Notes under the pieces: generated by a model
The model's input: only the letters and a program-made list of their open reading frames with translations
Told to the model about the DNA's origin: nothing
Database searches by the model: none
Part shown: piece after piece, positions 3,009 to 59,727 of the stretch
Numbering within the stretch: the stretch's first letter is position 1
Layout of the letters: each line of letters starts with the position of its first letter
Source: Candidatus Multivoradales bacterium
Lineage (GTDB): Bacteria > Acidobacteriota > Thermoanaerobaculia > Multivoradales > JAHEKO01
Assembly: GCA_965223155.1 (NCBI GenBank)
Contig: CBDCVR010000015.1
Span: 1,245,892 to 1,309,891 of the forward strand
DNA length: 64,000 bases
Direction: 5' to 3'
Position numbers and translations under genes: made by a program

Positions 3009-5438
3009 ATGAAGCGTTTCCTGTTGCTAGTTTGCGCGCTTTCCATCGTCTTGCCGGTCACCGCCTGGGCTCAGGGCGGAGGCATCGAAGGCAACGTTCT
3101 CCGAGCGGACGGTTCCGGCGTGGGCGGTGTCGCGGTCGTGGTCAACGAGACCGGCGATGCCGAGCTGACCGGAAGCGACGGCTCGTTCGAATTTCCGGGG
3201 GTGGCCCCCGGCACATATTCTCTGAGCTTCACCCTGGGCGACAACTTCGCCTCCGAGGAAGGAGTCGAGGTAGAAGCCGGCTCGCCGACCACCGTGGAGA
3301 AGACGGTCGACTGGCAGGTGAGCTTTGCCGAGACCATCACCGTGGTCTCAGCTTCACGCCGCGCCGAGCGCATCGTCGAAGCGCCCGCGGCGGTAAGCCT
3401 GGTCACGGATGCCGAGATCGCGCGTGAAGCCGCGCACGCTCAGCTGCCGAAGCTCTTGGAGTTCACGCCCGGCGCGGAGGTGACCCAGAGCGGTCTCTAC
3501 GACTACAACCTGAACACCCGGGGCTTCAACAGCTCGCTCAACCGGCGCGTAGCGACCCTGGTCGATGGCCGCGATCCCTCGGTGCCGTTCCTGGGCGCCC
3601 AGGAATGGGCGGCGCTTTCGTTTCCCCTAGATGACATCGCCAGCCTCGAGATGGTGCGCGGGCCGAGCGCGGCCCTCTACGGCGCCAACGCTTCGAGCGG
3701 CATCGTCAACTTGATCACCAAGCGCCCCAAGGACAGCCAGGGCGGCTCCCTGCGGGTTGCCGCCGGTGAGGTCTCGACAACCAACCTTGATTTTCGCTGG
3801 GCCGGTGGCCTGGGCGGCGATTGGTACGCGAAGCTTCTGGGTGGCGTCCGGCAGAGCGGCGACTTCACCGTTTCGCGGAACGGCCATGCCGAGTACTCCG
3901 TACCCTGTACCGCCAGCGGCCAGACCGACTGTTTGCCGCAGGAAGCGGCGCCGCTCAATCCCGAAGACGACGTCGACATCAACTTCTATGGCCTCAGGCT
4001 CGACAAGCATCTCGCCAACGGTCACCTCCTGACCTTCGAGGGCGGTAACTCCGCGGCCGAGGGCCCGATCTTCCAGACCGGCATCGGCCGCGTCCAGCTG
4101 GTCGACATCGAGCGGCCCTGGTACCGCGCCAACTACAACACCATGCACTGGAACTTCCTGTTCTACGAATCGAGCCGGGATGCCTCCCGGCAGACCGCGC
4201 TCTCGTCCGGCAGCAACGTGGTGCTCGACACCAGCCGGCAGACCTTCGAGGCGCAGACCAACTGGAGCTTCGCCCAGGACAAGGCCCGCGTGGTCGTCGG
4301 CGCCTCGTTTTCCGAGGACGACATCGACACGGCCGGAACCAACGGTCTTCAGACCCTGATCTTCCAGCCGCTCACCAACGACAAATCGGCCTTCTTCGCG
4401 CAGCTCGATTGGAACGCCACCGACAAGCTCAAGGTGGTGCTGGCCGGGCGCACGGACGAGAACGATCTGCACGACACGCAGTTCTCGCCCAAGGCTTCGG
4501 TCGTCTATTCGATCAATCCGAATAGCACCCTGCGCCTGACCTACAACGAGGCGTTCCAGGTGCCGAACTACTCCGAGTTCTTCCTGCAAGCGAACGTGGC
4601 GCCGCCGCTGGCGCTCCAGCCCTTCGAGGCCTTCTGCACTCCGTTCGGCGTCAACTGCGGCTTCGGTGGTGGTCCAACGCGAATCATCGCCTCCGGCAAC
4701 GCCGCCCTCGATCTGGAGGAGACCCAGACCACCGAGATCGGCTACAGCGGCATCCTGGGAGGCAAGGCCTACCTGACGATCGACTTCTACCAGAGCGACA
4801 ACACCAACTTCATCACCGATCTCATCCCGCAGTTCACCGCCCTCGGGCGCACCAATCCGGCCTTCGGTCCGTATGCGCCGCCGGCCAACCTGCCGGCCCC
4901 CGTGGCGGCAGCTTTGGTGGCCGCCCTTCAGGGCGCGCTGGGACCGTCCTACGCGATTCTGACCAACAACTTCGATGGCGACCCGGTGCTCTTGGCGGTC
5001 TCGTACACCAACTTCGGTGACGTCGATACCCAGGGCGTGGACGTCGGGCTCAACTACTACGTCGACGACCGGTGGACGGTGTCGGCCAGCTTGTCGAACT
5101 TCGACTTCGACGTGAACTCGAGCCAGCCGGGCTTCGAGAATCTGCTGCTGCCGAACACTCCCGAGACCAAGGGGTCCTTCGGAGTCGCCTACACGGCGCC
5201 GAAGTGGGATCTCGCGGTCGACGCGCGCTGGGTGGACACGTTCCGCTGGGCCGTGGGTCCATTCGTGGGTGACGTCAAGTCCTACACGACGATGGATCTC
5301 AACACCAACTACATGGTCAATGACAAGGTTCGCCTGGGACTGAGCGTCGCCAACCTGCTGGACGACGAGCACTGGGAGTCCTTCGGTGGCGACATCCTGA
5401 GCCGCCGGGCTCTGGGGAGCGTGGCGTTCAGCTGGTAG
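3009..5438 (+). CDS. TonB-dependent receptor with N-terminal carboxypeptidase-regulatory-like domain
   Basis: Signal peptide, ETITVVSASRR TonB-box-like region, plug motif EMVRGPSAALYGANA, aromatic C-terminus. Confidence 0.9.
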   Translation: MKRFLLLVCALSIVLPVTAWAQGGGIEGNVLRADGSGVGGVAVVVNETGDAELTGSDGSFEFPGVAPGTYSLSFTLGDNFASEEGVEVEAGSPTTVEKTVDWQVSFAETITVVSASRRAERIVEAPAAVSLVTDAEIAREAAHAQLPKLLEFTPGAEVTQSGLYDYNLNTRGFNSSLNRRVATLVDGRDPSVPFLGAQEWAALSFPLDDIASLEMVRGPSAALYGANASSGIVNLITKRPKDSQGGSLRVAAGEVSTTNLDFRWAGGLGGDWYAKLLGGVRQSGDFTVSRNGHAEYSVPCTASGQTDCLPQEAAPLNPEDDVDINFYGLRLDKHLANGHLLTFEGGNSAAEGPIFQTGIGRVQLVDIERPWYRANYNTMHWNFLFYESSRDASRQTALSSGSNVVLDTSRQTFEAQTNWSFAQDKARVVVGASFSEDDIDTAGTNGLQTLIFQPLTNDKSAFFAQLDWNATDKLKVVLAGRTDENDLHDTQFSPKASVVYSINPNSTLRLTYNEAFQVPNYSEFFLQANVAPPLALQPFEAFCTPFGVNCGFGGGPTRIIASGNAALDLEETQTTEIGYSGILGGKAYLTIDFYQSDNTNFITDLIPQFTALGRTNPAFGPYAPPANLPAPVAAALVAALQGALGPSYAILTNNFDGDPVLLAVSYTNFGDVDTQGVDVGLNYYVDDRWTVSASLSNFDFDVNSSQPGFENLLLPNTPETKGSFGVAYTAPKWDLAVDARWVDTFRWAVGPFVGDVKSYTTMDLNTNYMVNDKVRLGLSVANLLDDEHWESFGGDILSRRALGSVAFSW

Positions 5439-5511: not shown

Positions 5512-5585
5512 CGGGGCGTGGCGCAGCCTGGTAGCGCACCTGCTTTGGGAGCAGGGGGTCCCGAGTTCAAATCTCGGCGCCCCGA
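5512..5585 (+). tRNA. tRNA-Pro(TGG), CCA not encoded
   Basis: Acceptor CGGGGCG/CGCCCCG, anticodon arm CCTGC-TTTGGGA-GCAGG, T-loop TTCAAAT. Confidence 0.95.
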
Positions 5586-5641
5586 TGTGAGGGGACGGCG
5601 GTAGCGCGGCAAGACGTCGCGATACTTGGACTCGGGAATTG

Positions 5642-5718
5642 CTGCCTGTAGCTCAGCTGGATAGAGCAGCGGCCTTCTAAGCCGCGGGTCGGGGGTTCGA
5701 ATCCCTCCAGGCAGGCCA
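5642..5718 (+). tRNA. tRNA-Arg(TCT)
   Basis: Acceptor CTGCCTG/CAGGCAG, anticodon arm GCGGC-CTTCTAA-GCCGC, TTCGAAT, 3' CCA. Confidence 0.95.
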
Positions 5719-5743
5719 GAATTTCGAGCAGCTTTGACAATAT

Positions 5744-5819
5744 GGTGAGCGTAGCTCAATGGTAGAGCGCTGGATTGTGGTTCCAGTGGTTGGGGGTTCG
5801 AATCCCCTCGCTCACCCCA
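5744..5819 (+). tRNA. tRNA-His(GTG)
   Basis: G-1 plus acceptor GTGAGCG/CGCTCAC, anticodon arm CTGGA-TTGTGGT-TCCAG, 3' CCA. Confidence 0.95.
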
Positions 5820-5829
5820 TTCAAAACGG

Positions 5830-5906
5830 GCACCCTTAGCTCAGCTGGATAGAGCGACGGCCTCCGGAGCCGTAGGTCAGAGGTTCGAATCCTCTAGGGT
5901 GCACCA
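5830..5906 (+). tRNA. tRNA-Arg(CCG)
   Basis: Acceptor GCACCCT/AGGGTGC, anticodon arm ACGGC-CTCCGGA-GCCGT, 3' CCA. Confidence 0.95.
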
Positions 5907-8030: not shown

Positions 8031-9985
8031 TTCGAGCGCAGGGCTCCCAAGGCGGATTGGGCCACGAGGGCGACGGGGTCGGCGGCAAGCTCGGAGAGGA
8101 CATCCAGGTTCTCCGGGCGTGAGAAGCGCGACAGGGCTTCGACCGCCGCCAGCCGGATACACCAGTCGGCGTTGCTGGCGGCCGCCCGGAAGAGTTCGTC
8201 GTCTTCCTCGGCGGCGCACTGGGCGAGAGCGCGGTAGGCAAGTCGCGCGTCGAGCTCGTTCTCGGAGGCAGCAAACGCGCGCAGAGCCTTCCGTGCCTCG
8301 GGTCCGCCGATCCGGCCCAGGGCTTCGATGAGAAGCGGTTGAATGCCGGGCTGAGGAGTTTCACTAAAGGAGACCAGGAGCGGCACGCTGTCGGCGTCGC
8401 CGAGCTCGCCCAGAGCGCGAATGGCCTCGGGAATCGGGTGCTCCGCGACGGCCTGCCGCAGCTCGGGCAGGAGATGACGCATGCCGTTGCGCGCGGCCGC
8501 GAGCGCCGCCGGCCGCAAGATGCGCTCGGGCTCGTCGCCGAGCCATCGATCCCAGGGCAGGAGCTCCAGGATCTCGCCTTCGTCGAGGAGCTGGTCGAGC
8601 GCGCGCAAGCGCAGGTCCGCTTCCAGGGCGGCGATGCCGGCGGCGGCCTTCTCGGGATCGGTGCCAAGCAGGGTTTCCAGAACGACTCGGTCGAGGTCAT
8701 TCAGGTCGGGCAGGTTCGCCGGTGCCGGATGGCGCGCAAGGTCGAGAACCGCCTGCGCGTTGGCGCGGAGGGCGGAGACCAGTTGACCGCGCTGGCCTTG
8801 ATCCGTCTCCAGATAGAGGCGCAGCAGGGGACGCGCCAGCTCGGGGGCCGTCAGCAGGGATTCCCGGTGCTCGCTGATGAGGCCTAAGGTTGTATCGATG
8901 CCGGCCTGGCCCGCGAGGCTCTCGATACCTTCCGCCACGGCCTCGACGGAGGCGGCTTCGGGATAGTGCGCGCACAACAGGAAGCCCCACTGCGGAAACG
9001 GGGCCTGCATGGTCAGGAGGGCCGGCGCCAGGTCGGGCCGACGCCTGAGACAGCTGGGCAAGATGTCGGGACTCAGATCGGTCGCGACCAGGCCCCTGAG
9101 AGCCTCCGTGTCTTCCGGGCCGGGCCCCAGGGCGAGGAGGCAGCGGGCGCTCGAGAAGCGAACTCCCTTGTAGGGGTCCCGCAGCCGGTCGGCGAGAGAG
9201 GACCGGAGCTCGTCGTTGCCTGCCGGCGGCTCGATGAGTCCCTCCAGGACGTGGGCCAGCAGACTCAGGGCGGCTTCCGGGTCTAGGGTCTCTTCGTACT
9301 CCAACCAGTGCCGGGAGAGAACCGAGTAGGCGTCCATCCCGCCGATCTGGGCGATCGCCTCGGTGGCCGACGGTCCGATCATGAGATCGGTGGTGAGTCG
9401 AGACAGAGGCTCGATGGCGTCGCTCGAGCGCAGGTCTCCCAAAGCCTGGACCGCCGCCATCTGCAGCCAGAGATCGCTCTCCAGGAACGGCAGCAAGTCC
9501 GGGATCACCCGGTGATCGCCCAGGTGGCCGATCGCCACGATGGCCGCCTGGACGATGTTCGAGTTGGGGTTCTTGAGCACGGCCCGCAGAGGTTCGAGGC
9601 CGCGGGGGTCCTTGATGTGGTCCAGGATCAGAACCGCCTGGAGCGCCACATCGGCATCCTGGTCTTTGAGCAGGCGGGAGGCGATCTCGAAGCCGCGGCT
9701 GCCCTTCTGCTTCAAGATCTCGAGGCCGGCGTTCCGGACGACGGCGTCGGCGTCGCTGCGCAGGAACTCGACCAAAGTGTCGTCGGAGAGGACGGCGACC
9801 CCGACCCGGAGCGCGCGCTCGCGGATCCCGGGCCTCGGATTGCGGATGAGCTCTTCGACCACGGCCGCGCGCTCGGTGATCGGCAGCGACGGCAGCGCTT
9901 CGAGCTGGCTCAGGCTATGAGCCCAGGAGTCCTCAGTGGATTCGACGGTGGTTGGGGTTGGGTTCATGGCGGGAACGGTCCTCAA
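8027..9985 (-). CDS. HEAT/PBS-lyase repeat protein in chemosensory operon
   Basis: Repeated 'AA..ALG.LG' HEAT units at both ends; coupled to MCP and cheR by overlapping codons. Confidence 0.85.
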
Positions 9986-11937
9986 ACGGTGAAGGTGTCG
10001 GCGAGGGCCTGAAGCTCTCGAGCCTGTCGGGTCAGGCTCTGGGTGGCCTGGGAGAGTTGTTCGCTGGTGGTCACGTTGCCGCGGGCGATCTGGGCGATGT
10101 GGTCGATGGCCTTGACCACCATGTCGCCGCCCCGCTTCTGCTCGGCCCCAGAGTGGGCGACCTGCTGGGTCATCTCGTTCATGCGTTCGACGGCGTTGAG
10201 GAGATCGCGGGCGCTGTCGGCCTGTTCCTTGGCCGAGGCGGCCACTTGCCGGGTGATCGCCTGCATGTTGCGAGACGTCTCCAGGATCTGGGCGGCACCG
10301 CCGCTCTGTTCCTGGGTGGCGATCGAGACCTCGCCGACCAGGCCGCGAGTCTTGGTCACCGAGTCGACGATCTCGGCCAGGATGTTGTGGATGAGCTCGA
10401 CCGCCTCGCCAGTGTCGTTCTGCATGGTATCGACGAAGCGCGAGATGTCCCGCGTCGAGGCGACCGATTTTTCCGCCAGGCGCTTGACCTCCTCGGCGAC
10501 CACCCCGAAACCGCGCCCGGCGTCGCCCGCGCGCGCGGCTTCGATGGCCGCGTTGAGCGCCAACAGGTTGGTCTGGTCGGCAATCTCTTCGATGATCCGG
10601 ACGATCTTGCTGATGTCGCCGGTCGAGGTCTCGATGCCTTCGATCACGCTGGAGAGGCGGTTGCCGGCGGTTTGCGCCGCCTCCGCTGATTCCTGGGAAA
10701 CCCGATCCACGACGTCGACCTTGCTGGCGATGGATGCGATCGAGGCGGTCATCTCCTCGATCGTGGCCGAGGTTTCCTCGACCGCCGCCATCAAGCTCTC
10801 GGAGTGCGAGGCCATCTCACCCGAGGACATGCTCATGATCTGAATCGAAGAAGCTGTCTGCTCGACGTTGCTGGCCAGGTTCTGCATCGAGTGGGCCACG
10901 GTGTCGATCTGGGCGGCGATCTCGACCATGGTCGAGGAGGTCTCCTCGGTCGCCGAGGACTGGCTCTCGGCTCCTTCGCTGATGGCATCGGCCGAGGACG
11001 AGATCTGGCCGGCCGCCGACTGCACCTGGTCGGACGAGGCCTTGAGCTTGCCCAGCATGCTCTGGAGGTTGCCGGCCATCTTCTGGAAGGCATGGCCGAA
11101 GCTGTCGTCCGCGGACCGCGGATCCACCTGCACCGTCAGGTCGCCATCGGCGATGGAGTCGGCCACGCCGGACATCTCGCGCAGGTAGTCGATCGAGCGC
11201 CTGAGCGAACTCGTGAGCTGACCGACCTCGTCCACGGAAGTGGCGCGAAGCTCGGTGCGCAGGTCGCCGCGGGCGAGCTCTTCGGCGGCGCCGACGGCAC
11301 GGGCCAGCGGCTTCGTCACCGAACGCACCGTCAGGTACGAAAGAGCGAAGAGCAATGCAAGGGCGGTTGCCAGAATGATCGAGAAGCGCAGGATCATCGA
11401 GCGGCTCTGCTCGCGCGCGCTCGAGATAGCCGCGCTCATTTCCCGCGACTGGTTCGTGCGCAGGCGGCTCAACCGGTTCTGGACGCGGCGGTAGGCTTTC
11501 GAGCTTTCCTCGAGGCGCGGCAGCACGTCCTCGCTGGCGCCGTCCTGGATGAGGGAAAGCGCCGCCTCGAGGCTGATCTCGTAGTAGGTCTGAAATTCGC
11601 GCCGGACGTTGGTTAGAAGATCGGTGTCGAGGGTCGGGTTGGCGGCGCCGGCGGCGCTCTTCTTCAGGAACTCGTCGCGGAGGCTTTCGGCTTCGGCCAG
11701 GCTGTCGGTGCTGACCGAGACCGCCGACTCGTCGAAGGCCCGCTGGATCTCGGCCAGGGTGTCGTTCAGGTCATGGCTGAGGCTCAGGGCCGGGAAGTAG
11801 CCCTCTTCGACGCGGCCCATGAGCTCCGAGTTCTCGGTGCCCTCCCGGCTGGCCAGAACCCAAAGGGCGAGGAACGCGATTCCGGCAAGTGCCGGCAGCA
11901 GGATGATGCGACTTCGGATGTTGATTCCGCGGAACAT
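9982..11937 (-). CDS. Methyl-accepting chemotaxis protein (2 TM, tandem HAMP)
   Basis: Signalling hairpin [33 protein letters not shown]; two TM helices flanking a periplasmic domain. Confidence 0.95.
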
Positions 11938-27944: not shown

Positions 27945-29675
<1,731 letters not shown>

Positions 29676-46956: not shown

Positions 46957-47032
46957 GGCGCGTTCGTCTAGGGGTCTAGGACGCCGGCCTCTCACGCCGG
47001 TAACACGGGTTCGAATCCCGTACGCGCTACCA
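46957..47032 (+). tRNA. tRNA-Glu(CTC), island attachment site
   Basis: Acceptor GGCGCGT/ACGCGCT, anticodon arm CCGGC-CTCTCAC-GCCGG, TTCGAAT, CCA. Confidence 0.95.
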
Positions 47033-48506
47033 CCTTTTCCAGCTCGATCTCCGGCCGGTCCAAGTCACTGAAGAACAGGCAGGTTACCGGGGTTCGAAAC
47101 GCCTCGTTGGACCAAACGAGGCCCTCGGGGAACAGGACCTTCTGCATCCGCCGGCGAAGCTCGAGCGGGAACTCCTCCCACAGGCGGCGGGCGTTCAAGA
47201 CGACGTACTCGGCGAACTCGAGGACGGCCTCAACGTCGAGCGAATCAAGAGCGTTGTCGTGGTGCTCGACGCGGACCAGGGTCAGGTCCTGGCCGATCCG
47301 CGCGAGCTCGCTGCGGTAAGTGTCCTGGTCGATCGCCTGCTCGTAGACGTAGGCCTCGACCAGGCGCTTCTTCTGCTCCTCGAGCCGCGCCAGCTCCTTC
47401 TCTAGCAGCGGGCGCATCTCGTCGAGCTCCTCTTTCCGCCGACGCCAGACCAGGAGCACGGTCTCCTTGAGCGCCTGCAGGTTCTTCTTCGAGGGCTTGA
47501 GCCGGTCGAGCAGCTCGAGGAAGCGCTCCTCGAGGGCCTCCTTCCGGAGGCTCGTGGTGCGGCAGCGGTGGCAGTGGTAGTAGGCGTACCGTTTGCCCGT
47601 CTTGGAGCGGGCCCAGGAGCCGGTCAGCGGGTTGTCGCAGGACCCGCAGCGGACGAAGCGCCGCAGGGGGAAGTCGGGGTTGTTGCGGAAGCGCTGCTCG
47701 CCAGTCCTCGCTGCCTTCCTCATCGCCAGCTGCGCCCGGTGGAAGGTGTGCTCGTCGACGATCGGCTCGAAGTCGCCCTGGACGTCGATGCCCCACTTGT
47801 CGTTCCGGATCCGACCGGCGTAGAGCGGGTGCTTGAGCATCTGCCCGAAGCTCTGCGGGCTCATCTTGTTGCCGAGCTTCGTCCGCAGTCCCAGGATCGT
47901 CACCTGCTCGAGGACCTCACGCTTCGAGTGAACGCCTTTGGCGTAGAGCTCGAAAGCGCGACGGACCAGGGGCGCGACCTCAGGATCGGGCTCGATGGTC
48001 TTCGAGCCGTCCGGCCGGTGGACGTTCCGATAGCCGAGCGGCGCCGGGAAGGTCCAGCGACCCCGCTTCAGGGCTTCCTTCATGCCCAGGGTCGTCTTCT
48101 CGGCGCGCTGGTCGTTGTCGAACTGTGCGATGGCGGCCAGGACGCCTTCCATGAGCTTCCCCGTGGGCGTCTCGTCGATCGCCTGGGTCACGGCCCGGAG
48201 CGTCATGCCGAGCCTGCCGAGCTGCGCCCGCACCGCGTGGTGGTCGTAGCTGTTCCGGGCGAAGCGGTCGAGCGAGTAGACGACCATCACGTCGACCCGC
48301 CCTAGATTCTCTCGGCAGTAGCTCAGGAGCCGCGTCAGCTCCGTCCGGTCCGCCGACTTCGCAGACTCACCCCGCTCGACGAAGACCCGATCCACCGTCC
48401 ACCCCTGCGCCTTGCAGAAGCGCACGCACTCCTTGCGCTGCGCCGGCAGACTCAGGTTCTTCGCCTGCTGCTGCGTGCTGACTCGGCAGTAGATGACGGC
48501 GCGCAT
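46992..48506 (-). CDS. Large serine recombinase (integrase)
   Basis: Catalytic YCRVST, LDRFARN, recombinase domain PLGY, Zn ribbon CGSC...CHRC, coiled coil. Confidence 0.95.
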   Translation of the reverse strand: MRAVIYCRVSTQQQAKNLSLPAQRKECVRFCKAQGWTVDRVFVERGESAKSADRTELTRLLSYCRENLGRVDVMVVYSLDRFARNSYDHHAVRAQLGRLGMTLRAVTQAIDETPTGKLMEGVLAAIAQFDNDQRAEKTTLGMKEALKRGRWTFPAPLGYRNVHRPDGSKTIEPDPEVAPLVRRAFELYAKGVHSKREVLEQVTILGLRTKLGNKMSPQSFGQMLKHPLYAGRIRNDKWGIDVQGDFEPIVDEHTFHRAQLAMRKAARTGEQRFRNNPDFPLRRFVRCGSCDNPLTGSWARSKTGKRYAYYHCHRCRTTSLRKEALEERFLELLDRLKPSKKNLQALKETVLLVWRRRKEELDEMRPLLEKELARLEEQKKRLVEAYVYEQAIDQDTYRSELARIGQDLTLVRVEHHDNALDSLDVEAVLEFAEYVVLNARRLWEEFPLELRRRMQKVLFPEGLVWSNEAFRTPVTCLFFSDLDRPEIELEKVVARTGFEPVLPA

Positions 48507-49213: not shown

Positions 49214-49242
49214 TTGACATCGAATGTTCGATTTACTAACAT
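49214..49242 (+). promoter_or_regulatory. sigma70 promoter of defence operon with palindromic operator
   Basis: TTGACA-17 nt-TAACAT; ATCGAA-tg-TTCGAT at 49219-49232 in the spacer. Confidence 0.7.
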
Positions 49243-49300: not shown

Positions 49301-50557
49301 ATGCCGGTCACGCCCAAAGAGCTCAGTCGACGGATTCGAACCGCGCGGGAAGCATGTGGGCTGACGCAGGAGCAGGTGGCTCAGGATCTCGGGGTGTCAA
49401 GGTCGGCTGTAGCCCAGATCGAAAGAGGAAAGCGCTCGGTCTCCAGCCTTGAGCTCGACCGGTTTGCTCACCTGTTTGGCCGCGACATTCGTGATTTCGT
49501 AGCGGACTCATTCGACGAGACCGACTCTCTCGCAGCTCTGTTCCGCGCACAGCCGGCGGTTCTTGAGGAGCCATCCGTGGCGGATGCACTTCGAGACTGC
49601 GTAGCGATAGGAAGAGAGATCAGCAACCTAGAGGAGCTGCTCGGAATCGAACGATCAGCTGGAGTGGTCGCCAGTTACCAGCTGCGAGCCCCGAGCACTC
49701 GCTGGGAGGCGATTCGACAAGGTGAGGTACTGGCCAAGGAGGAGCGTCGGCGTCTAGGCCTAGGCGCTACTGCTCTGCCGGACCTTGCCGAGCTCCTCGA
49801 AACGGAAGGCGTACGCACCGGGGTCGTCGATCTTCCGGACGACGTGTCGGGCTTGACGCTCAACGACAAAGAACATGGCCTCTTCGTGATTGCGAACCGC
49901 TCGCATCACGTTCTTCGCCGGCGTTTCTCCTTTGCACATGAGTACGCGCATGTGCTCGCCGATCGAGACCGTTTCGGACTCATCAGCCGCTCCTCGGAGC
50001 GCAGCAACCTGATTGAAGTGCGCGCCAACGCTTTCGGCGCTTGCTTTCTCATGCCTGAAGAGGGCGTGAAGGAGTTTCTGATCAGCCTCGGGAAGGGGAA
50101 GCCGAGTCGCCCATCGTCGGAGGTCTTTGACGAAGCGGATAGCGTCAAGGTTGAAGGGCGAATGGCGCCTGGTAGCCAAGCAGTGCAGCTCTACGATGTT
50201 GTCCAGCTCGCCGCCCACTTCGGTGTGAGTCGCATCGCGGCGCTATACAGGCTTCGAAACCTGAACCTAATCAACGAAGCCGAGTTCGATGATCTGCGGA
50301 CCTTAGATGACGCTGGCCGAGGGCGACAGCTCTCCCAGGCACTTGGTCTGCGAGAACCCGATCACGAGGAGGCACGGAATTGGTTCCGGCATCGTTTCCT
50401 GGGCCTTGCACTCGAGGCTTTCCGCCGTGAGGAGATATCGCGCGGGAAGCTGGAGGAGCTCGTCTTGGTGCTTGGTGTATCAAGAGAAAAGCTCGAGGAA
50501 CTCCTCGAAGAAGCTGGCCTTGTCGAGCGGAGCGCCGAGGGAGTTCCGGAGCGATGA
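49301..50557 (+). CDS. XRE HTH fused to ImmA/IrrE metallo-endopeptidase
   Basis: HTH GLTQEQVAQDLGVSRSAVAQIERG; RRRFSFAHEYAH and EVRANAF; GAGGAGG RBS. Confidence 0.93.
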   Translation: MPVTPKELSRRIRTAREACGLTQEQVAQDLGVSRSAVAQIERGKRSVSSLELDRFAHLFGRDIRDFVADSFDETDSLAALFRAQPAVLEEPSVADALRDCVAIGREISNLEELLGIERSAGVVASYQLRAPSTRWEAIRQGEVLAKEERRRLGLGATALPDLAELLETEGVRTGVVDLPDDVSGLTLNDKEHGLFVIANRSHHVLRRRFSFAHEYAHVLADRDRFGLISRSSERSNLIEVRANAFGACFLMPEEGVKEFLISLGKGKPSRPSSEVFDEADSVKVEGRMAPGSQAVQLYDVVQLAAHFGVSRIAALYRLRNLNLINEAEFDDLRTLDDAGRGRQLSQALGLREPDHEEARNWFRHRFLGLALEAFRREEISRGKLEELVLVLGVSREKLEELLEEAGLVERSAEGVPER

Positions 50558-51087
50558 CCAAGCAGCGAGCCAGGGTCGTCGTGACCGATGCCAATGTGCT
50601 GATAAACCTCGCACACGTTCATCGGCTAGACCTTTGCGCTCGCCTTGCAGGCCTTGAGTTCGTAATTCCAGATCATGTCCGTGACGAGATAACTCGCCGC
50701 GAGCATCGAGATGCCCTGGAAGAGTCAATCGAGGCAGGCGTCTTTAGGGTCGTCAGCATCACCGAGGCGGACGACATTGCGGCGTTCGCAGCGCTCACGA
50801 CCTTTCTGGGCCGCGGCGAAGCGTCGTGCTTGGTCCTTGCTTCGCGAAACGGCTGGCTGGTCGCAAGCGACGAAAGGGGCAGGTTTCGTCGCGAAGCGGG
50901 CGCCCGTATTGGGCAAGACAGGATCCTCGGGACGGTCGAGATCTACGTCCGCGCCCTGCAAGCGGGCCTGCTCTCGCTGGAGGAGGCGGATGTCGACAAG
51001 GCGGTGTTGGAAACACGACGGTTCCGAATGCCATTCGAATCGTTCCACGATATTCCTGTAGACGTTGTGCCAAAGGCTTCGCGATGA
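50554..51087 (+). CDS. PIN domain nuclease (DUF3368-like)
   Basis: VVTDANVLI, LGRGEASCLVLA and VASDE acidic triad; ATGA overlap. Confidence 0.85.
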   Translation: MTKQRARVVVTDANVLINLAHVHRLDLCARLAGLEFVIPDHVRDEITRREHRDALEESIEAGVFRVVSITEADDIAAFAALTTFLGRGEASCLVLASRNGWLVASDERGRFRREAGARIGQDRILGTVEIYVRALQAGLLSLEEADVDKAVLETRRFRMPFESFHDIPVDVVPKASR

Positions 51088-52253
51088 AGACGGGGGATCG
51101 AGTGTCGCTCTACAAGCCTAGGGGAAGGCAAGTGCCTGCGAAGACGAGGTTGTTCCTCTTTACGCAGGCCGGAGGCCGCTGCGAGTTCGACGGCTGCAAC
51201 CGCTACCTTCTCGAACATCCTCTTACGAGGACCGTCGGCGTCTTTGCACAAATGGCGCATATCTTCGCTTTCAGCGACCGCGGCCCTCGTGCTGTGCCGT
51301 CGGGGTCAACGGCAGAAAAGCACGCCCTTGCGAACCTCATTCTTCTCTGCCCAGAGTGCCACAAGCTCGTAGACGATGACCCTGAAACCTACAGTGCCTC
51401 GGTACTTCGAAAACATAAGAAGGCGCACGAAGATCGAATCTTCATACTCACGGATACCAAGCCAGACCGCCAGACGGTCGCCTTCGTTCTACGGGCGAGA
51501 ATTGCAGACCAGAGTGTTGCTATCTCTCGTGCTGACATGGAGGCAGCTGTCGCACCGCGCTACCTTGGCAGAGACGTAGTCGAGTGCAACTTGACGGCGC
51601 TGCGTGATCAAGTTGGATGCGACTACTGGCAGGTTTCGCAAGACGCAATTCAGAGAGCCGCTGCGGGGCTGTACACAGGCACATTCGACGGAGGGCCGGC
51701 GCGCCACGTATCTGTATTTGCACTCGCGCCGATACCGCTCCTGGTGTTTCTTGGAACTCAGCTTAGCAGCAAGGTTCCCACCTCGATGTTCCAACGGCAC
51801 CGCGATTCGGAGGATTGGAAATGGAAAACGCGTGGGGAGGCCGTTTCATTTCAGATGCGACAGCTGAGAAAGGGGACACAGACCGACCGACTTGCACTTC
51901 TACTCTCATTAAGTGGTCCAATCGAGGCGACTGATCTCCCCGCGGAGATTGACGCCCGGTACACCATCACAGAGATCGCACCGGCGAGTCAGCGGCCAAG
52001 CCCAAATGTGCTTCGCTTGGAAGCTACGTTTCACGCGTTTCGTACTGAGTTCATGGCTACCGTTCGGCAGCTTGTCGCGCGGCATCAGGGGCTCAGAGCG
52101 ATCGACCTGTTTCCGGCTGTTCCTGCGCCTGTTGCTACCGCAGTAGGGCGAGACCTGCTCCCCAAGCGCGACCCTTCTCTTCGGGTCTACGACTACAACA
52201 AGCGAGCTGGCGGCTTCTCGCTGGCCCTGGAGGTGAATCAGAATGAAACCTGA
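51084..52253 (+). CDS. cap5: CBASS HNH-SAVED effector (Cap5-like)
   Basis: AGGRCEFDGC, AHIFAFSDRGPR and NLILLCPECHKLVD (HNH); SAVED motifs VFALAPIPLLVFLG and LFPAVPAPVATAVG. Confidence 0.9.
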   Translation: MKTGDRVSLYKPRGRQVPAKTRLFLFTQAGGRCEFDGCNRYLLEHPLTRTVGVFAQMAHIFAFSDRGPRAVPSGSTAEKHALANLILLCPECHKLVDDDPETYSASVLRKHKKAHEDRIFILTDTKPDRQTVAFVLRARIADQSVAISRADMEAAVAPRYLGRDVVECNLTALRDQVGCDYWQVSQDAIQRAAAGLYTGTFDGGPARHVSVFALAPIPLLVFLGTQLSSKVPTSMFQRHRDSEDWKWKTRGEAVSFQMRQLRKGTQTDRLALLLSLSGPIEATDLPAEIDARYTITEIAPASQRPSPNVLRLEATFHAFRTEFMATVRQLVARHQGLRAIDLFPAVPAPVATAVGRDLLPKRDPSLRVYDYNKRAGGFSLALEVNQNET

Positions 52254-53142
52254 AGACTACATACGCAGAATCCTGGTAGGCCAGACCTTTGCAAGCGATG
52301 ATGCAGAGCTAGAGGAGATCCGCGAGGGGCGGAAACGCATTGAATCGATCTTGCGCAGCCACTTCTCTTCATCAAGCCCTTCAATTCGGTGGGCCGGGTC
52401 AATGGCTAAGGGGACGATGATTCGCGAGTCGTATGACGGCGACATGACGTGCTACTTCGATCATGATGATGTTTCCGCCGGTAGCACCCTGGCGGAGATC
52501 TACAGTAATACTCTGGAGGCCCTGTCGGGCGACTACCTGCTTGAGCAGAAGCCCTCTGCGATCCGCGTGAGAGATAAGGAGTTTCACACGGATCTCCACA
52601 TCGACGTAGTTCCAGGCCGGTACACCAACGACGAGAGGAAGGACGTGTTCCTGCACCGGACTACCGGTGATAAGGAACGGCTGAAGACCAACCTCCAAGT
52701 CCACGTCGACCACATCAAGGGGAGTGGAGTTGTTGACGCCATCCGCCTGATGAAGTTGTGGAACGTGCGAAATGGTGTCGACACCAAGACGTTTGTTCTT
52801 GAGCTCCTGGTCGTCGAACTCCTAAGAGAACAGAAGAGAACTTCACTCTCGAGCCAGCTCCTAAGTGTCTGGAGAGAATTCAGCGATGACCCAGACGGCC
52901 TCGCTGTCGAAGACCCTGCGAACGCAAACAACGACCTTAAGCCCGTTCTTGACCGCTTTCGCCCGATGCTGGAGCAAGCCGCCCGGGATACTCTGTGGCA
53001 GATCGACAACAGCGGCTGGGAAGCCGTCTTCGGGAGCATTGAAGATGACGACGGCGGGAACGGAGGGAAGAAGAGGGAGGCCCTTCGGGCCACGGCTGCT
53101 GCCGTCGCGAACCCAACCAAGCCCTGGCTGATTGGATTCTGA
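52243..53142 (+). CDS. CD-NTase (cGAS/DncV-like cyclic oligonucleotide synthase)
   Basis: GSMAKGT, YDGD, DVVP, IRLMKLW, FVLELL and EDPAN; adjacent to SAVED effector. Confidence 0.9.
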   Translation: MKPEDYIRRILVGQTFASDDAELEEIREGRKRIESILRSHFSSSSPSIRWAGSMAKGTMIRESYDGDMTCYFDHDDVSAGSTLAEIYSNTLEALSGDYLLEQKPSAIRVRDKEFHTDLHIDVVPGRYTNDERKDVFLHRTTGDKERLKTNLQVHVDHIKGSGVVDAIRLMKLWNVRNGVDTKTFVLELLVVELLREQKRTSLSSQLLSVWREFSDDPDGLAVEDPANANNDLKPVLDRFRPMLEQAARDTLWQIDNSGWEAVFGSIEDDDGGNGGKKREALRATAAAVANPTKPWLIGF

Positions 53143-53147
53143 GTCGC

Positions 53148-53873
53148 GTGGGAACGCCCTGGTTCGAACGGGAGCCTTATCTGGCCGAAGAGATTCGGGC
53201 GGACTTGCGCGAGCGCCAGCCGGAGCTGCATCTTGTACTCGGTCCCGACGGAATTGGCCTAATCCGTGGGACGTTTGTAGTGAGATCCCCGGCTGGGACG
53301 GTGCTTGAGCGCTTTCGGATCACAATCGAGTTACCTGCCCGCTACCCAAGAGATCTGCCAATTGTCCGGGAGGTGGGCGGCCGTATTCCGTGGCGCCAGG
53401 AGTTTCATGTTGAGAGCGATGGGATCGCTTGCGTTCTCCTTCCAGATGAGCGGTGGAGATGCTTCCCCGAAGACGCTCCCATTCGACACTTCTTGGACGG
53501 GCCGTTGCACGACTTCTTTCTTGGCCAGAGCTTGATAGCTCTCGGCGAGGACTGGCCATTCGGCGAGTGGGCTCATGGCGCCCAGGGCATTATCGACTAC
53601 TACAAGGAACTGCTTGAAACAGACGATCCCGTTGAGATCGCCCGTTTTCTTCGAGTTGCTGCGAAGTTGAACCCGAAGTTTCACCTTCCATGCCCTTGTG
53701 GAAGTAGGAAGAAGATCAGGAAGTGCTGCAGATTAAAGGCGATGAGGCTCCGGAAGCTTGTTCCGCCGGCGATCGCCCGCAGATCGCTTGAGCGACTCGG
53801 CCTTCGCGGAGTCCCACAAACCAATGTCGACAGTAGCCAACTGGGTGCCAATCAAACGCAGTCGCGGCGCTAA
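53148..53873 (+). CDS. Prokaryotic E2 ubiquitin-conjugating-like protein with SEC-C motif
   Basis: IELPARYPRDLPIVRE and FHVESDGIAC (E2 His/Cys); C-terminal PCPCGSRKKIRKCC. Confidence 0.82.
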   Translation: MGTPWFEREPYLAEEIRADLRERQPELHLVLGPDGIGLIRGTFVVRSPAGTVLERFRITIELPARYPRDLPIVREVGGRIPWRQEFHVESDGIACVLLPDERWRCFPEDAPIRHFLDGPLHDFFLGQSLIALGEDWPFGEWAHGAQGIIDYYKELLETDDPVEIARFLRVAAKLNPKFHLPCPCGSRKKIRKCCRLKAMRLRKLVPPAIARRSLERLGLRGVPQTNVDSSQLGANQTQSRR

Positions 53874-53915
53874 GCGTTGCGATACGATCGCGGGCACCAA
53901 CACCGAATAAGAACG

Positions 53916-54656
53916 ATGATGCAGCGTCTTCTCGTAAGTGTCCGCGGCCCGAACGAAGCAATTGCGGCTGCCGAAGGCGCCGCACACATTGCGGACGTCG
54001 AGTTTCCGGCATCTGCTTTGGGCACGCCGTACCCTTTGAACATCCGAGCCGTACGCTCGGCTCTGGATGAAAACGGCCTCAAGCACGTCCGTATCTCGAC
54101 GAACATCGGCGAAGAGCAACCGGTACGGAGTACGGCTTGCCAGGCTGCCCTTGGCGTGGCGGTCGCAGGGGCCGATTACGTCAAGTGCGGCCTGGCTGGG
54201 CTCCCTCTCTCGTCTGCTGTGTATCTCGGCCGGAATCTTGTGCGCACCGTTAGAGAGTGGTTCCCTGAGAAGAAGGTCTACCCCGCGGTATTCGCCGACG
54301 ATGATCTGACGAAGCTCTTCGACCCGTTGGTAGATGGTCCCAAACTTTGCCGGGAGATCAATTCCGACGGGCTCCTGATCGACACCTTCAACAAGGACCT
54401 GGGCAAGGGACTGTCCGGCTGCTACACATCTGATCAACTTCATGAGTTCGTCGAGAAGATTCACAGGCTTGGCAAGGAGGCGTGGCTCGCAGGCAGTATT
54501 CGAGAGAAGCAGCTTCCAGGTCTGTGGCAAACGGGGGTTGACGTGATTTGTGTTCGTGGCGCCGCATGCACGGTTGATCCCGACCAGCCACGCTTTGGGG
54601 ACGTCTCTACTGAGATCGTGACCGCGCTCGTTGGCACCCTGCCCGGAAGCACCTGA
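53916..54656 (+). CDS. MfnB-like ((5-formylfuran-3-yl)methyl phosphate synthase / DUF556) TIM-barrel protein
   Basis: LLVSVRGPNEA, GADYVKCGL, LIDTFNKD, LAGSI and DVICVRGAAC match the family pattern; DVKNP appears as DVEFP. Confidence 0.8.
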   Translation: MMQRLLVSVRGPNEAIAAAEGAAHIADVEFPASALGTPYPLNIRAVRSALDENGLKHVRISTNIGEEQPVRSTACQAALGVAVAGADYVKCGLAGLPLSSAVYLGRNLVRTVREWFPEKKVYPAVFADDDLTKLFDPLVDGPKLCREINSDGLLIDTFNKDLGKGLSGCYTSDQLHEFVEKIHRLGKEAWLAGSIREKQLPGLWQTGVDVICVRGAACTVDPDQPRFGDVSTEIVTALVGTLPGST

Positions 54657-54667
54657 TTGCCCAAGAG

Positions 54668-56230
54668 ATGGGTTGGAGCGGAAAGAAGGAATACAGAAAC
54701 ATCCGCGGGGAGCTGCGGGCCGTTGACCACGAAGACTTCCAGCAAAAGCTCCTTCCTCTGCTCAGGATTCTGAATCCACATGTAGTGTCGTCACCGGCTT
54801 CGCGACGATGGGATCGCGCAGGTGTAGACCTCTATGCAGAAGGGGAAGATGGTCGGCTCGCACTGGTCGTCCAAGCGAAAGGCTACCAGCCGCGTACTGC
54901 CTACCCGGCGTCACGCCAGGTTGAGAGTGCGCTGCACTCCATACGCTCGTTCGCCGAGTCTGGCCTCCGCGCCGCTCAGTACATCTTTGTACACAATCGA
55001 GATAATCGAGACAACGGATTTAGGACTGCGGTCACTGCCGCCCTAGGGGAACTGAACGCGACAGGTGTTGCTAGAGAGGCCGAGCTCTGGGGTGTCAATG
55101 AGTTGCTCACTGCCTGCTTTGACGCCATGCTGTTGCAGCTTCGCTCCGCCGTGATTGAGGAGAGCCAGAGGATTGCACGCTCTGCGGATTGGGTGCCCGC
55201 TGAAGGCCTCGAACCGTTGAATGTGGTTCCAGTGCGACGCGGCTCTATTGAAGCAGACCAACACCGGGTCTTGTCCTCCGAATCGGAGGACACGCGCATG
55301 CTAGACGCGGCCGAGCAGATACTAGCCGCATCCGAAGAAGGCCTGACGCTGGTTCTCGGAGAGTTCGGCTCTGGCAAGACAACTGCGGTGAGCAGGTCAC
55401 TAGGGCTCACCGAACGCGGTGTAATGCTAGTTCCTGCGGCCCGCTTTTCGTCGAACGTGACCGGGACGAAGCACTTCTTTCTTCTGTGTCTAGATGAAGA
55501 ACGGTTTTTTGATGTCAGCGACGAAGACGACGCTCGCTATCGTCGCCTGGTCGCAAGACCTGCAATTGAGAGAATCCTGCGTGACCCTGAAACCGATCTA
55601 GTCCTGATCCTCGACGGACTTGACGAATCCGGCTTTCTAAGCCGGGAGGGTTCACTTCAGCACCTCTTCAATATCCTGGAGGTAGCTTCTGTCCCTGTCA
55701 TCCTGGCGATGCGGACGGAATTCTGGTACCGACGACGGAGGGAGTTCGACGTTGCCTACGGGAAGATCGGGCACCCTGACTCCACAAGGCGGAGGCGGAT
55801 CTCGACACTCGAGTTGATGCCTTGGACCGACTTTGAAGTTCAGGCTCTAGTCCAGTCTGCCATCAATGCAAGCCCTACAGCGGAGAAGGCACATCTGAAA
55901 GAGCTAGCCTCTCTATTGGGCTCGGCTGAGTTCGAGCGACTGTACGGAGACATCCCGCGACGACCTCTTTTCCTTCGCTTTATTATCGACTCAGTTCGTG
56001 AGCAAGGCTTGCCTGGCGAGAAAGTAGGCGTAGCAAGTTTGATGATGGACTGGATCTCGTCGAAGCTCTGGAGAGACGCACTTGCGCCAGTCGCGGCAGG
56101 AGGCAGAGGCCGTGTATCCCTAGCGAAACGGAGGACCGCTGCCGAAGAACAGGTGGCAATCGCAATCCGGGCAATGACCCAAGCAGCTGCGTGTGAGCTA
56201 TGGTCGAAAGTTGTGTATGAGATGAGATGA
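54668..56230 (+). pseudogene. Restriction-endonuclease-like plus NACHT/STAND NTPase, C-terminally truncated by IS256
   Basis: N-terminal DRAGVD...VQAKG (PD-(D/E)xK/Mrr-like); Walker A GEFGSGKT, Walker B LILDGLDE, RPLFL; last codons derive from the IS end at 56195. Confidence 0.78.
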
Positions 56231-56680
56231 AGGCGGCGTATCCTGAATCGTTCGATTTCCAAGCGTTCGATTCAAACCCTTCAGAGAAGGAGGATACGCC
56301 GTGAGCAAGAGTAACGTAGTTTCGATTGATCGATCAGAGAGCCGCGAGGACGCCTTGACCGAAGTGCTTCGCCGAGGCTCTCGGCGCCTGCTTCGCGAAG
56401 CGATCGAAGCCGAGGTCGAGAGTTTCCTGGCCGAGTACCGCGGCGAGGTCACCGAGGACGGTCGTCGGCGTATGGTGCGCAATGGCTATCTGCGAGAGCG
56501 CGAGATCCAGACGGGGATCGGCGGTGTGGCTGTGAAGGTGCCTCGAGTCCGCGATCGTTCGGGCTCGCTTCAGTTTCGCTCGAAGATAGCGCCGCCGTAT
56601 CTCAGGCGAGCCAAGAGCGTCGAGGAGCTGCTGCCGTGGCTCTATCTGCGCGGCATCTCCACCGGAGATTTCTCCGATGC
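56195..56680 (+). mobile_element. Truncated IS256-family element (left end and 5' part of transposase from 56301)
   Basis: End GAGCTATGGTCGAAAGTTGTGT; ORF motifs AIEAEV, RNGY, VPRVRDR and LYLRGISTGDF, then an abrupt break. Confidence 0.88.
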
Positions 56681-56986
56681 CCCCCGGGGGAGGTGCCCCC
56701 GGGGGAGGTGCCGCACGATTCCGGGGCGGGTACATCACCTGCTGGGCGGAGGGGCGCAGGCCCGGTTAGCCTGGGTCTAGGTACTCAATCCGGCGCTTGT
56801 TTCTCGAGGGCCTTCTCGATTCGTCGACACCAGTCTTCCGAGTTACGGCTCGGAAGGTCGGCCTGATCTCGGATCCCGAGCTTGAATTCGACGACAGACT
56901 TCCATTCTTCCGAGCCGAGATCAGGTCCGTGGCCCATGCCATCTCCGGCCGCCGCAAGGGTGGCCGCAAGGGTGCCACTCGATTGC
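56681..56986 (+). repeat. Two direct copies of motif GGTGCC(A/G)C(A/T)CGATT, each preceded by a tandem duplication
   Basis: cccccgggggaggtg x2 then ccgcacgatt; gccgcaagggtg x2 then ccactcgatt. Confidence 0.75.
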
Positions 56987-59383: not shown

Positions 59384-59515
59384 CGTTTCCCCGGGCGGCC
59401 GTGCGAACCGGTCCGGTGCGTTGGCCGCGAGTCGTCAGCGTAGAGGGGAGCGGCGCCGCCACGAAGGACACTTGGCCCCAATCGCTTGACTTCGTGATCC
59501 AGAATGGAGCGGAGC

Positions 59516-59710
59516 CGATCAAGGAAGTGCGCTCAAGGAAGTGCCGATCAAGGAAGTGCAGCAAGGAAGTGCGATCAAGAAAGTGCCACCCAATTGCTCT
59601 AGAAAAGTGCAATCGCTGGACGGCCAGCATGTGAGCTTGTCGTGTGGCACCTCAGTGAGCAGAATCGTGTGGCACCTCAGTGAGGTGAGAGGTGAGGGCA
59701 CCTCAGTGAG
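59516..59710. repeat. Composite repeat: 5x caag(g/a)aagtgc, motif copy, inverted motif copies with 3x ggcacctcagtgag
   Basis: agtgccacccaattgc at 59582 (+) faces agaatcgtgtggcacc at 59661 (-). Confidence 0.85.
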
Positions 59711-59727
59711 GGGGCCCGTCCGCCCGA

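Follow-up and report, generated by a model that had tools for sequence, protein, structure and literature searches.

A defence island in an acidobacterial genome is probably a mosaic of separately recurring modules around an E2-only CBASS

A 64,000-nucleotide stretch of the genome of Candidatus Multivoradales bacterium (contig CBDCVR010000015.1, positions 1,245,892 to 1,309,891; hereafter the window) contains seven consecutive genes, numbered g1–g7 in order, which include an antiphage signalling system based on cyclic oligonucleotides (CBASS). The region is probably a mosaic defence island composed of four separately recurring modules and not one fixed system. The modules are a toxin–antitoxin-like pair (g1–g2), the CBASS (g3–g5), an MfnB-like enzyme (g6) and a nuclease-STAND gene (g7). 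A single seven-gene system is unlikely, because the set was not found elsewhere, the eight related E2-type CBASS loci lack the additional genes, g7 is truncated, and the g1–g2 pair recurs alone. The CBASS, the toxin–antitoxin-like pair and the nuclease-STAND gene each belong to a known type. The MfnB-like gene is apparently a real, previously undescribed companion of CBASS in other genomes. The genes and the site upstream of them are as follows:

49214..49242, + strand: promoter-like site TTGACA-17-TAACAT, from a consensus scan
49301..50557, + strand: g1, XRE helix-turn-helix (HTH) and M78/IrrE-type metallopeptidase (HEYAH), RmrA- or CapH-CapP-fusion-like
50554..51087, + strand: g2, PIN-fold protein, candidate toxin
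51084..52253, + strand: g3, HNH-SAVED effector (Cap5-like)
52243..53142, + strand: g4, CD-NTase, the CBASS cyclase
53148..53873, + strand: g5, stand-alone E2-like protein with a SEC-C-type CPCGS motif
53916..54656, + strand: g6, MfnB-like TIM-barrel enzyme of a distinct PF04476 subfamily
54668..56230, + strand: g7, Mrr-like nuclease and STAND NTPase (Avs4-like), C-terminally truncated

Open reading frame (ORF) calls on the window place all seven genes on the + strand, packed within 49301–56230. The g1/g2 and g2/g3 junctions are ATGA overlaps, g3 and g4 overlap by 11 nt, and gaps of 5, 42 and 11 nt separate g4/g5, g5/g6 and g6/g7, respectively. An earlier reading of the sequence (the original prediction) had given exactly this arrangement, and all of its positions were confirmed. 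Domains were called with Pfam, PADLOC and NCBIfam profiles, which, together with a structure prediction for g2, bear out the proposed XRE-IrrE/PIN, E2-type CBASS and MfnB-like identities. The PADLOC check that had been suggested recognised the CBASS parts and returned RmrA, capP, capH and PDC-S70 models for g1 and g2; it gave no match for g7. The consensus scan found two promoter-like sites, vs 1.4 expected, so that the site upstream of g1 carries little weight on its own. Its spacer contains a 14-bp palindrome, ATCGAATGTTCGAT (49219–49232, read from the sequence), which is a candidate operator for g1. No convincing + strand terminator was found within the seven-gene array.

Genes g3–g5 are, judged from their sequences, an E2-only (short type II) CBASS. 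The g3 product matches the Pfam domains SAVED (6.3e-36) and HNH_2 (1.2e-4) and the PADLOC endonuclease effector (3.7e-132). The g4 product matches PADLOC cyclase PDLC00803 across the whole profile (1.3e-64), and its translation contains GS...DGD, which we take to be the CD-NTase motif. Its Pfam matches to SMODS and DncV-like domains are below the cut-offs, and it scores 60 bits against the NCBIfam model CBASS_cyclase_a, vs a cut-off of 200. The g5 product matches the PADLOC E2 model (9.6e-61) and shares a conserved histidine and cysteine with six E2 relatives. None of the seven proteins has a ThiF or JAB domain according to Pfam. A cyclase C-terminus suited to E2 conjugation ends in glycine or alanine. 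The last residues of the g4 protein are ...TKPWLIGF, with no glycine at the very end. A [KRQ]P[WY] motif is located 2–5 residues from the end of the E2-linked cyclases of the window (53100–53142) and of loci L024, L031, L034 and L043; the versions in the five loci are TKPW, SRPW, SKPY, SKPW and PQPW. This shared motif suggests processing of the cyclase C-terminus or another type of acceptor.

Relatives of the g5 E2 protein are present in eight of the 400 other genomes of a sample of the phylum. Searches with hidden Markov models (HMMs) and phmmer detected neither an MfnB-like gene nor relatives of g2 or g7 at any of these eight E2-type CBASS loci, one of which ends right after the E2 gene. A DUF6119 gene is present downstream in one of the eight, and weak, divergent XRE-M78 relatives are located upstream of two others, L124 and L127.

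Genes g1 and g2 constitute a pair of toxin–antitoxin-like appearance that recurs alone or beside other systems. The g1 product contains the Pfam domains HTH_3 (3e-15) and Peptidase_M78 (1.2e-14) with the motif HEYAH. It matches 14 PADLOC RmrA models, the best with an E-value of 8.6e-27, and partially matches capP (4.5e-16) and capH (1e-7). The g2 product has no Pfam match, to PIN or to any other domain, and no RmrT match in PADLOC; its only PADLOC matches at E ≤ 0.01 are to models of PDC-S70, an untested candidate family (best 5.7e-13). The predicted structure of g2 (pLDDT 95) resembles PIN domains in a Foldseek search of the PDB, with AF0591 (1o4w), Nob1, PAE2754 and VapC as the best matches and TM-scores of 0.52–0.63 on the target. 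Residues E45, G88, E89 and D106 are invariant across 19 sequences, and the aspartate of the first strand is kept in most rows.

The proteins g1 and g2 are predicted to bind each other, with g1 covering the conserved acidic pocket of g2. The ipSAE of the modelled complex was 0.82 in three runs, and the best of three controls reached 0.00. Among solved complexes, 58 of 80 reach this mark, as do 2 of 110 mismatched pairs; the calibration is only rough for g1–g2 because custom alignments were used. At least 70% of the contacts agree between the runs, and the partner pLDDT is at least 87. The interface is formed by the HTH region and residues 373–399 of g1 against residues 82–89 and 107–111 of g2, stretches that flank the invariant E89 and D106.

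Relatives of g2 were detected in 17 of the 400 phylum-sample genomes, a tally that includes the unpublished G049, and a g1 relative is directly upstream of all four closest ones (L090, L091, L092 and L073). The L091 pair is positioned between genes for a TonB-dependent receptor and an Ig-domain protein, with no recognisable defence neighbour. Downstream of the L090 pair are a transposase gene and then an E2-E1-JAB fusion, and unannotated genes follow the L092 pair. Locus L073, a 2.2-kb contig of genome G372, has the g2 stop codon overlapping an HNH-SAVED start by ATGA, as in the window. Its HNH-SAVED protein is 72% identical to g3 over the first 58 residues, up to the contig end. No MfnB-like gene was found in the assembled part of G372 (90% complete).

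The g7 gene was probably cut short by a deletion linked to an insertion sequence (IS) and is probably dead. Its translation contains a Walker A GSGKT and a DGLDE motif, and its NACHT and Mrr_cat matches are below the Pfam cut-offs. The best fold match of the g7 model (pLDDT 81) is Avs4 (E 6.6e-9, 486 columns), followed by NOD2 and NLRC4, all with low TM-scores of 0.29–0.36 on the query. The predicted REase-NACHT identity is thus upheld at the level of the fold, and the gene itself is incomplete. Most of the 93 relatives of g7 are 600–620 residues long, vs 520 residues in the window. In the alignment, homology ends near residue 507 (window position ~56190); the conserved FAHRxFQEFFLA block is absent, and about 100 C-terminal residues are missing. 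Searches of the window with seven full-length relatives (tblastn) found no C-terminal remnant elsewhere, and the matches stop at ~56190. Next to the gene is a partial Mutator/IS256-type transposase gene. The C-terminal sensor region measures only about 100 residues even in full-length relatives. The g7 family was not found in the 400 phylum-sample genomes or in viral contigs. In metagenomes, at least three loci were confirmed among 594 pattern matches listed. No MfnB-like gene is near the g7 relatives in the two loci with an upstream flank (L067 and L069), one of which adjoins a serine recombinase gene.

The g6 enzyme belongs to a distinct subfamily of MfnB-like proteins. It matches Pfam 4HFCP_synth (PF04476) with 132.6 bits (2.5e-38; cut-off 22.4), and it is below the NCBIfam MfnB cut-offs (131.9 bits vs 341, and 124.3 vs 304). 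Comparison with MJ1099 from the PDB (7.7e-30) showed that the archaeal D-V-K reads D-V-E in g6. The catalytic residues of MfnB are, as we assume, Asp25, Lys27, Lys85, Asp151 and Lys155, and Lys27 presumably matters for catalysis. The glutamate at the Lys27 position is invariant in 21 of 21 aligned relatives, as are the equivalents of K85, D151 and K155; Asp25 is also kept. The available part of one publication describes Lys155 of MfnB as catalytic (PMC11365854). We infer that the reaction of the subfamily is of the class I aldolase type, with a sugar phosphate or a nucleotide-derived compound as substrate, because the Lys/Asp set is kept and the gene has nucleoside-2-deoxyribosyltransferase-like (NDT-like) partners in 11 loci and polyamine-type partners in 16.

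A protein search identified 1176 relatives of g6 among 3568 candidates scored, and the best 120 are 65–73% identical to it. The subfamily is 50–73% identical across more than ten phyla. No match was found among 50,697 phage records, and plasmids contained only genes 28–35% identical, from Streptomyces, Streptantibioticus and Sinorhizobium. None of the 400 phylum-sample genomes contains a close relative, and four have distant matches of 80–98 bits. A second copy in the host genome is 70% identical to g6, and both copies are located on recombinase-borne islands. The island of the second copy (L065, G000 contig C13, 7818–17567) encodes a serine recombinase 93% identical to that of the window, followed by PtuA, PtuB, a pyridoxal phosphate (PLP) decarboxylase, DUF3326, the MfnB-like protein, PtuA and PtuB. 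Two Septu pairs are thus arranged around three enzyme genes.

Scanning one genome per species yielded 62 confirmed MfnB-like loci with 50–68% identity to g6. They originate from Planctomycetota, Ignavibacteriota, Bacteroidota, Omnitrophota, Elusimicrobia, Nitrospirota, Gemmatimonadota, Verrucomicrobia, Chloroflexi-type, Desulfobacterota-type and other metagenome-assembled genomes. For the neighbour census, ORFs were called and clustered, cluster representatives were annotated, and cluster HMMs were searched against all locus ORFs. The MfnB-like ORF was recognisable in 60 of the loci, and 40 are flanked by 4 kb or more on either side. Within 5 kb, CBASS genes are present in 14 of the 62 loci, PtuA/PtuB in 15, genes for an S-adenosylmethionine (SAM)-decarboxylase-like protein, a PLP-decarboxylase or DUF3326 in 16, and DUF6119 and NDT-like genes in 11 each, all of these counts being lower bounds; 38 loci have at least one of the five classes. 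The CBASS is of the E2 type in six loci (L022, L024, L030, L031, L034 and L043). The MfnB-like gene abuts CBASS genes in L015, L031 and L059, with gaps of 5–102 nt. No g7 relative was found in any of the 62 loci.

Other arrangements also recur. A small NDT-like gene (162–174 codons) overlaps the MfnB-like start by 18–19 nt in L007, L022, L030, L034 and L054, at ~9490–10004 in most of the five loci and at 4859–5347 in L030. A 275-residue NDT-like form overlaps the MfnB-like stop in L033 and L040. A set composed of the MfnB-like gene, PtuA, PtuB, a SAM- or PLP-decarboxylase and DUF3326 is found in L001, L002, L006, L010, L014, L026 and nine more loci. It crosses phyla and is either co-directional with or divergent from the MfnB-like gene. 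The set looks like a Septu system embedded in small-molecule (polyamine-type) genes. DUF3326 has been named PavB and, according to the accessible part of the report, takes part in polyamine synthesis together with a decarboxylase domain (bioRxiv 10.64898/2026.06.12.731819).

DUF6119 genes (~550 residues, no PADLOC match) are directly upstream of the MfnB-like genes in L008, L011, L029 and L039. Another is located at L125 (6546–8195), downstream of an E2-type CBASS without an MfnB-like gene; because of this occurrence, DUF6119 may be a defence gene in its own right. A relationship of g7 to the recurrent MfnB-like neighbours DUF6119 (c3), c16, c8 and c21 was rejected, with hhalign probabilities below 1%.

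In a tree of 59 rows, g6 is within an 11-row clade with a support of 99/80. Nine of the 11 rows, one of them the host's second copy, have Septu or polyamine-type neighbours. By its phylogenetic position, the g6 of the window belongs to a lineage that is normally accompanied by Septu and polyamine-type genes, not by CBASS. No such partners are present in the window. Across the tree, CBASS adjacency requires at least 11 changes and Septu adjacency at least eight, counts that are descriptive and not a test, as kin share labels.

Several observations weigh against the mosaic interpretation. Translational coupling throughout the array and the single promoter-like site fit a co-expressed unit, and the order g1–g2–CBASS recurs once, in L073, with the same coupling. 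In 11 of the 14 CBASS-bearing MfnB-like loci, every CBASS gene shares the strand of the MfnB-like gene and is in line with it (12 if the distant extra cyclase of L043 is ignored). These systems span three cyclase clusters, with HNH-SAVED or NucC effectors. Such in-line placement looks more like that of an accessory gene than of a chance neighbour. The predicted g1–g2 complex may partly reflect likeness to solved HTH-antitoxin/PIN complexes. The genes of foreign loci are longest-ORF calls, and the HMMs were built from the same loci, so that the neighbour counts are lower bounds with some risk of mislabelling. Furthermore, 24 of the 62 MfnB-like loci have none of the five neighbour classes, and six sampled from among these have ordinary neighbours, such as genes for subtilase, secretin, histidine kinases and PAS proteins; the family is therefore not always in a defence setting. 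Functional cross-talk among the seven genes could still occur. Two links between modules are genuine but incomplete: the toxin–antitoxin-like pair is coupled once to the same kind of CBASS, and MfnB-like genes accompany CBASS in many lineages.

The original prediction had proposed that the seven genes form one layered, co-regulated system in which the toxin–antitoxin pair and the NACHT protein guard the CBASS against phage inhibitors. The tight coupling behind one promoter-like site speaks for this proposal, as do the g1–g2–HNH-SAVED junctions of L073 and the recurrence of MfnB-like genes with CBASS. We consider it quite improbable, since the complete set was found nowhere else, the eight related E2-type CBASS loci have no counterparts of the MfnB-like gene, g2 or g7, and the g1–g2 pair also stands alone. 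The additional genes, whose recurrence had been suggested as a check, recur with CBASS to different degrees: the MfnB-like gene in 14 of 62 loci, g1–g2 once and g7 in none of the loci found. The truncated g7 belongs to a family absent from the phylum sample and not seen beside MfnB-like genes. A narrower possibility, which is compatible with a mosaic, is that g1 is mainly a fused transcriptional switch of the CapH-CapP type for the operon, with g2 as a passenger. The partial capP and capH matches, the palindrome within the promoter-like site and the weak, divergent XRE-M78 relatives upstream of the CBASS of L124 and L127 point in this direction. So do the capH-capP fusions at CBASS and DISARM loci, one with a vapC-like neighbour, in the accessible part of a preprint (Lau et al. 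2022). However, CapH and CapP are described as encoded upstream on the opposite strand, whereas g1 has the orientation of the genes that follow it and is coupled. In addition, RmrA models give the best PADLOC matches of g1, the predicted interface with g2 is confident, and the pair of L091 has no recognisable defence operon next to it. This role of g1, with g2 as a passenger, is a reasonable possibility, although not the one we would choose.

The role of g6 has three competing explanations. It could be a true ancillary CBASS gene whose product generates, alters or eliminates a nucleotide-derived small molecule and in this way tunes cyclase signalling or supplies a second effector arm, in parallel to the nucleotide-modifying genes that accompany type IV CBASS. 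The 14 CBASS-bearing loci with their mostly in-line genes and short gaps favour such a role, as do the repeated origin of the association on the tree and the six E2-type systems among the 14, given that this type occurs in only eight of the 400 phylum-sample genomes. We consider it doubtful for the window, because the family is equally often associated with Septu/polyamine-type genes, DUF6119 alone or ordinary genes, the window copy is from a Septu-context clade, none of the eight phylum-sample E2-type loci has an MfnB-like gene, and defence genes cluster in islands anyway. Alternatively, g6 and g7 could be a two-gene module of enzyme and ATPase-nuclease, now disabled, that parallels the combination of an MfnB-like gene with PtuA (ATPase) and PtuB (HNH). 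The 11-nt gap between the genes and the composition of g7, a nuclease with a P-loop NTPase, agree with this, and PtuA is directly downstream in seven loci of the g6 clade with same-strand PtuA and PtuB. Nevertheless, the absence of g7 relatives from the 62 MfnB-like loci, the lack of an adjoining MfnB-like gene at L067 and L069 and the unrelated profiles of the recurrent neighbours make a g6–g7 module improbable. An ordinary metabolic MfnB, making methanofuran or a related cofactor and present on the island by chance, would explain the PF04476 match, the similarity to MJ1099 and the retained lysine and aspartate residues. It is extremely improbable in view of the NCBIfam score (132 vs 341), the replacement of the D-V-K lysine by glutamate in 21 of 21 sequences, the lack of close relatives in the phylum sample, the location of both host copies on recombinase-borne islands and the defence-type neighbours in most annotated loci.

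Returning to the mosaic interpretation, a course of events at the locus can be outlined. The outline builds on the gene identities, junctions, truncation, recurrence counts and predicted g1–g2 interface; its regulatory and enzymatic steps are all our proposals. The island was presumably brought in by the large serine recombinase at the tRNA-Glu gene, with the modules joined head to tail behind one promoter-like site. The g1 protein probably represses this promoter by binding to the palindrome in the spacer. On the model of CapH/CapP and IrrE, activation of the g1 peptidase by a signal from phage or DNA damage may lead to removal of the repressor/antitoxin, which would increase downstream transcription and free the PIN protein g2. 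The E2 protein g5 would prime the cyclase g4, which upon infection would produce a cyclic oligonucleotide. Binding of the oligonucleotide by the SAVED domain of g3 would activate its HNH DNase and result in abortive infection. The g6 enzyme would be a solitary member of a strongly conserved, horizontally mobile and defence-associated MfnB-like subfamily that travels with different systems and does not serve methanofuran synthesis; the Septu and polyamine-type genes that normally accompany its lineage appear to have been lost here. The g7 protein would be an Avs4-like nuclease-STAND sensor disabled by the IS-linked deletion.

The MfnB-like family is the main lead from this locus, as it combines an altered active site with positions inside CBASS operons of different types across phyla and, elsewhere, with a conserved five-gene set that includes Septu and polyamine-type enzymes. 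It is possible, but for now a tentative idea, that the glutamate-bearing subfamily is a new class of portable small-molecule enzyme in defence and that, in the window, it is the fourth working gene of the E2-type CBASS. That the enzyme is a working ancillary gene of both CBASS and Septu is somewhat doubtful. If these ideas are true, the enzyme makes or destroys a sugar-phosphate or nucleotide-derived metabolite, acting alone, with the overlapping NDT-like N-glycosidase or with the polyamine-type enzymes (SAM/PLP decarboxylase and DUF3326), and the module has been recruited repeatedly as an ancillary arm of CBASS and Septu. A defence function would bring new sugar-phosphate or polyamine chemistry into immunity and provide a new ancillary class for the two systems. 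The g1–g2 pair offers a concrete case in which an HTH-peptidase "antitoxin" may both inactivate a PIN toxin and control the immune operon behind it. The mosaic interpretation also cautions against naming a new "composite system" from one locus.

The setting of the array agrees in part with the tRNA-integrated island that had been proposed. The flanking features are as follows:

46957..47032, + strand: tRNA-Glu (CTC), found with ARAGORN; integration site and left end of the island
46992..48506, − strand: large serine recombinase gene (Pfam Resolvase, Recombinase, Zn_ribbon_recom)
56301..56780, + strand: Mutator/IS256-type transposase gene fragment (Pfam Transposase_mut 1e-12, profile positions 18–122 of 379)

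The last codons of the recombinase gene overlap the 3′ end of the tRNA-Glu gene, and the G+C content is 0.56–0.61 across 49–57 kb, vs 0.65–0.72 upstream. The left flank, including the tRNA-Glu gene, is conserved in three of three related genomes. Except for a single 42-nt match, the right flank (56.8–61 kb) has no counterpart in these genomes. Neither a second copy of the tRNA 3′ end, which would mark a right-hand attachment site, nor a convincing long direct repeat spanning the island was found within the window. Serine recombinases need no such repeat, so that the right end of the island is not fixed. The transposase fragment covers the N-terminal ~125 of 379 profile positions.

Further features were noted in and around the window. 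The decayed transposase remnant contains an exact 15-nt tandem duplication (CCCCCGGGGGAGGTG ×2, 56681–56710). Two short tandem arrays are present in an intergenic stretch (59514–59711), one with GCCGATCAAGGAAGTGC-like units spaced ~14–27 nt and the other with 25-nt units containing GGCACCTCAGTGAGG. Four clustered tRNA genes (Pro, Arg, His, Arg) are located at 5512–5906, far from g1–g7. In the related genome G119, contig C201 contains the same tRNA-Glu gene (10356–10431, L108) and, ~18 kb distant, a 49-nt repeat that is 90% identical to its 3′ part (28397–28445, L111), which suggests another island at the same tRNA-Glu site.

Comparison with characterised systems places each module close to, and apart from, a known relative. 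The window shares with short type II CBASS the order of HNH-SAVED, CD-NTase and lone E2, the absence of E1 and JAB, and the conserved histidine and cysteine of the E2; it differs in the cyclase without a terminal glycine and in the coupling to an upstream toxin–antitoxin-like pair. In the available part of their preprint, Lau et al. (2022) report capH-capP fusions at 15 CBASS systems and at a DISARM locus where a vapC-like gene adjoins the fusion, and they place CapH/CapP upstream of the operon that they control, on the opposite strand. As far as this part of the source allows a comparison, g1 has the same HTH and IrrE-type M78 peptidase adjoining a CBASS, whereas it is co-oriented, overlaps g2 by ATGA and is a predicted g2 binder. 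The pair resembles RosmerTA (RmrT/RmrA) in having an RmrA-type HTH-peptidase beside a small candidate toxin, but no RmrT model matches g2, whose fold is of the PIN type and whose only PADLOC matches are to PDC-S70. With PIN/VapC-type toxins, g2 shares the predicted fold and conserved acidic residues. Table S1 of the Lau preprint, on capH-capP fusions, and the candidate tables of Payne et al. may bear on g1, g2 and PDC-S70.

The truncated g7 has the N-terminal Mrr-like nuclease and STAND NTPase of Avs4/bNACHT proteins, with Avs4 as its best fold match; unlike them, its family has only ~610 residues and no long repeat sensor. A literature search that left supplementary tables aside found no paper in which PF04476/MfnB-like genes are connected with phage defence, CBASS or Septu. 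Embedding of Septu inside Hma is described in the available part of a preprint (Payne et al. 2024), and the sister loci of g6 similarly place PtuA and PtuB between the MfnB-like and decarboxylase/DUF3326 genes; their host genes are MfnB-like, SAM/PLP decarboxylase and DUF3326, not Hma. With MfnB itself, the 4-(hydroxymethyl)-2-furancarboxaldehyde phosphate (4-HFC-P) synthase MJ1099 (PDB 4RC1/4U9P), g6 shares the PF04476 TIM barrel and the equivalents of K85, D151 and K155. The g6 subfamily differs from it in the glutamate that replaces the D-V-K lysine, the NCBIfam score below the cut-off, the defence-type neighbours and the patchy distribution.

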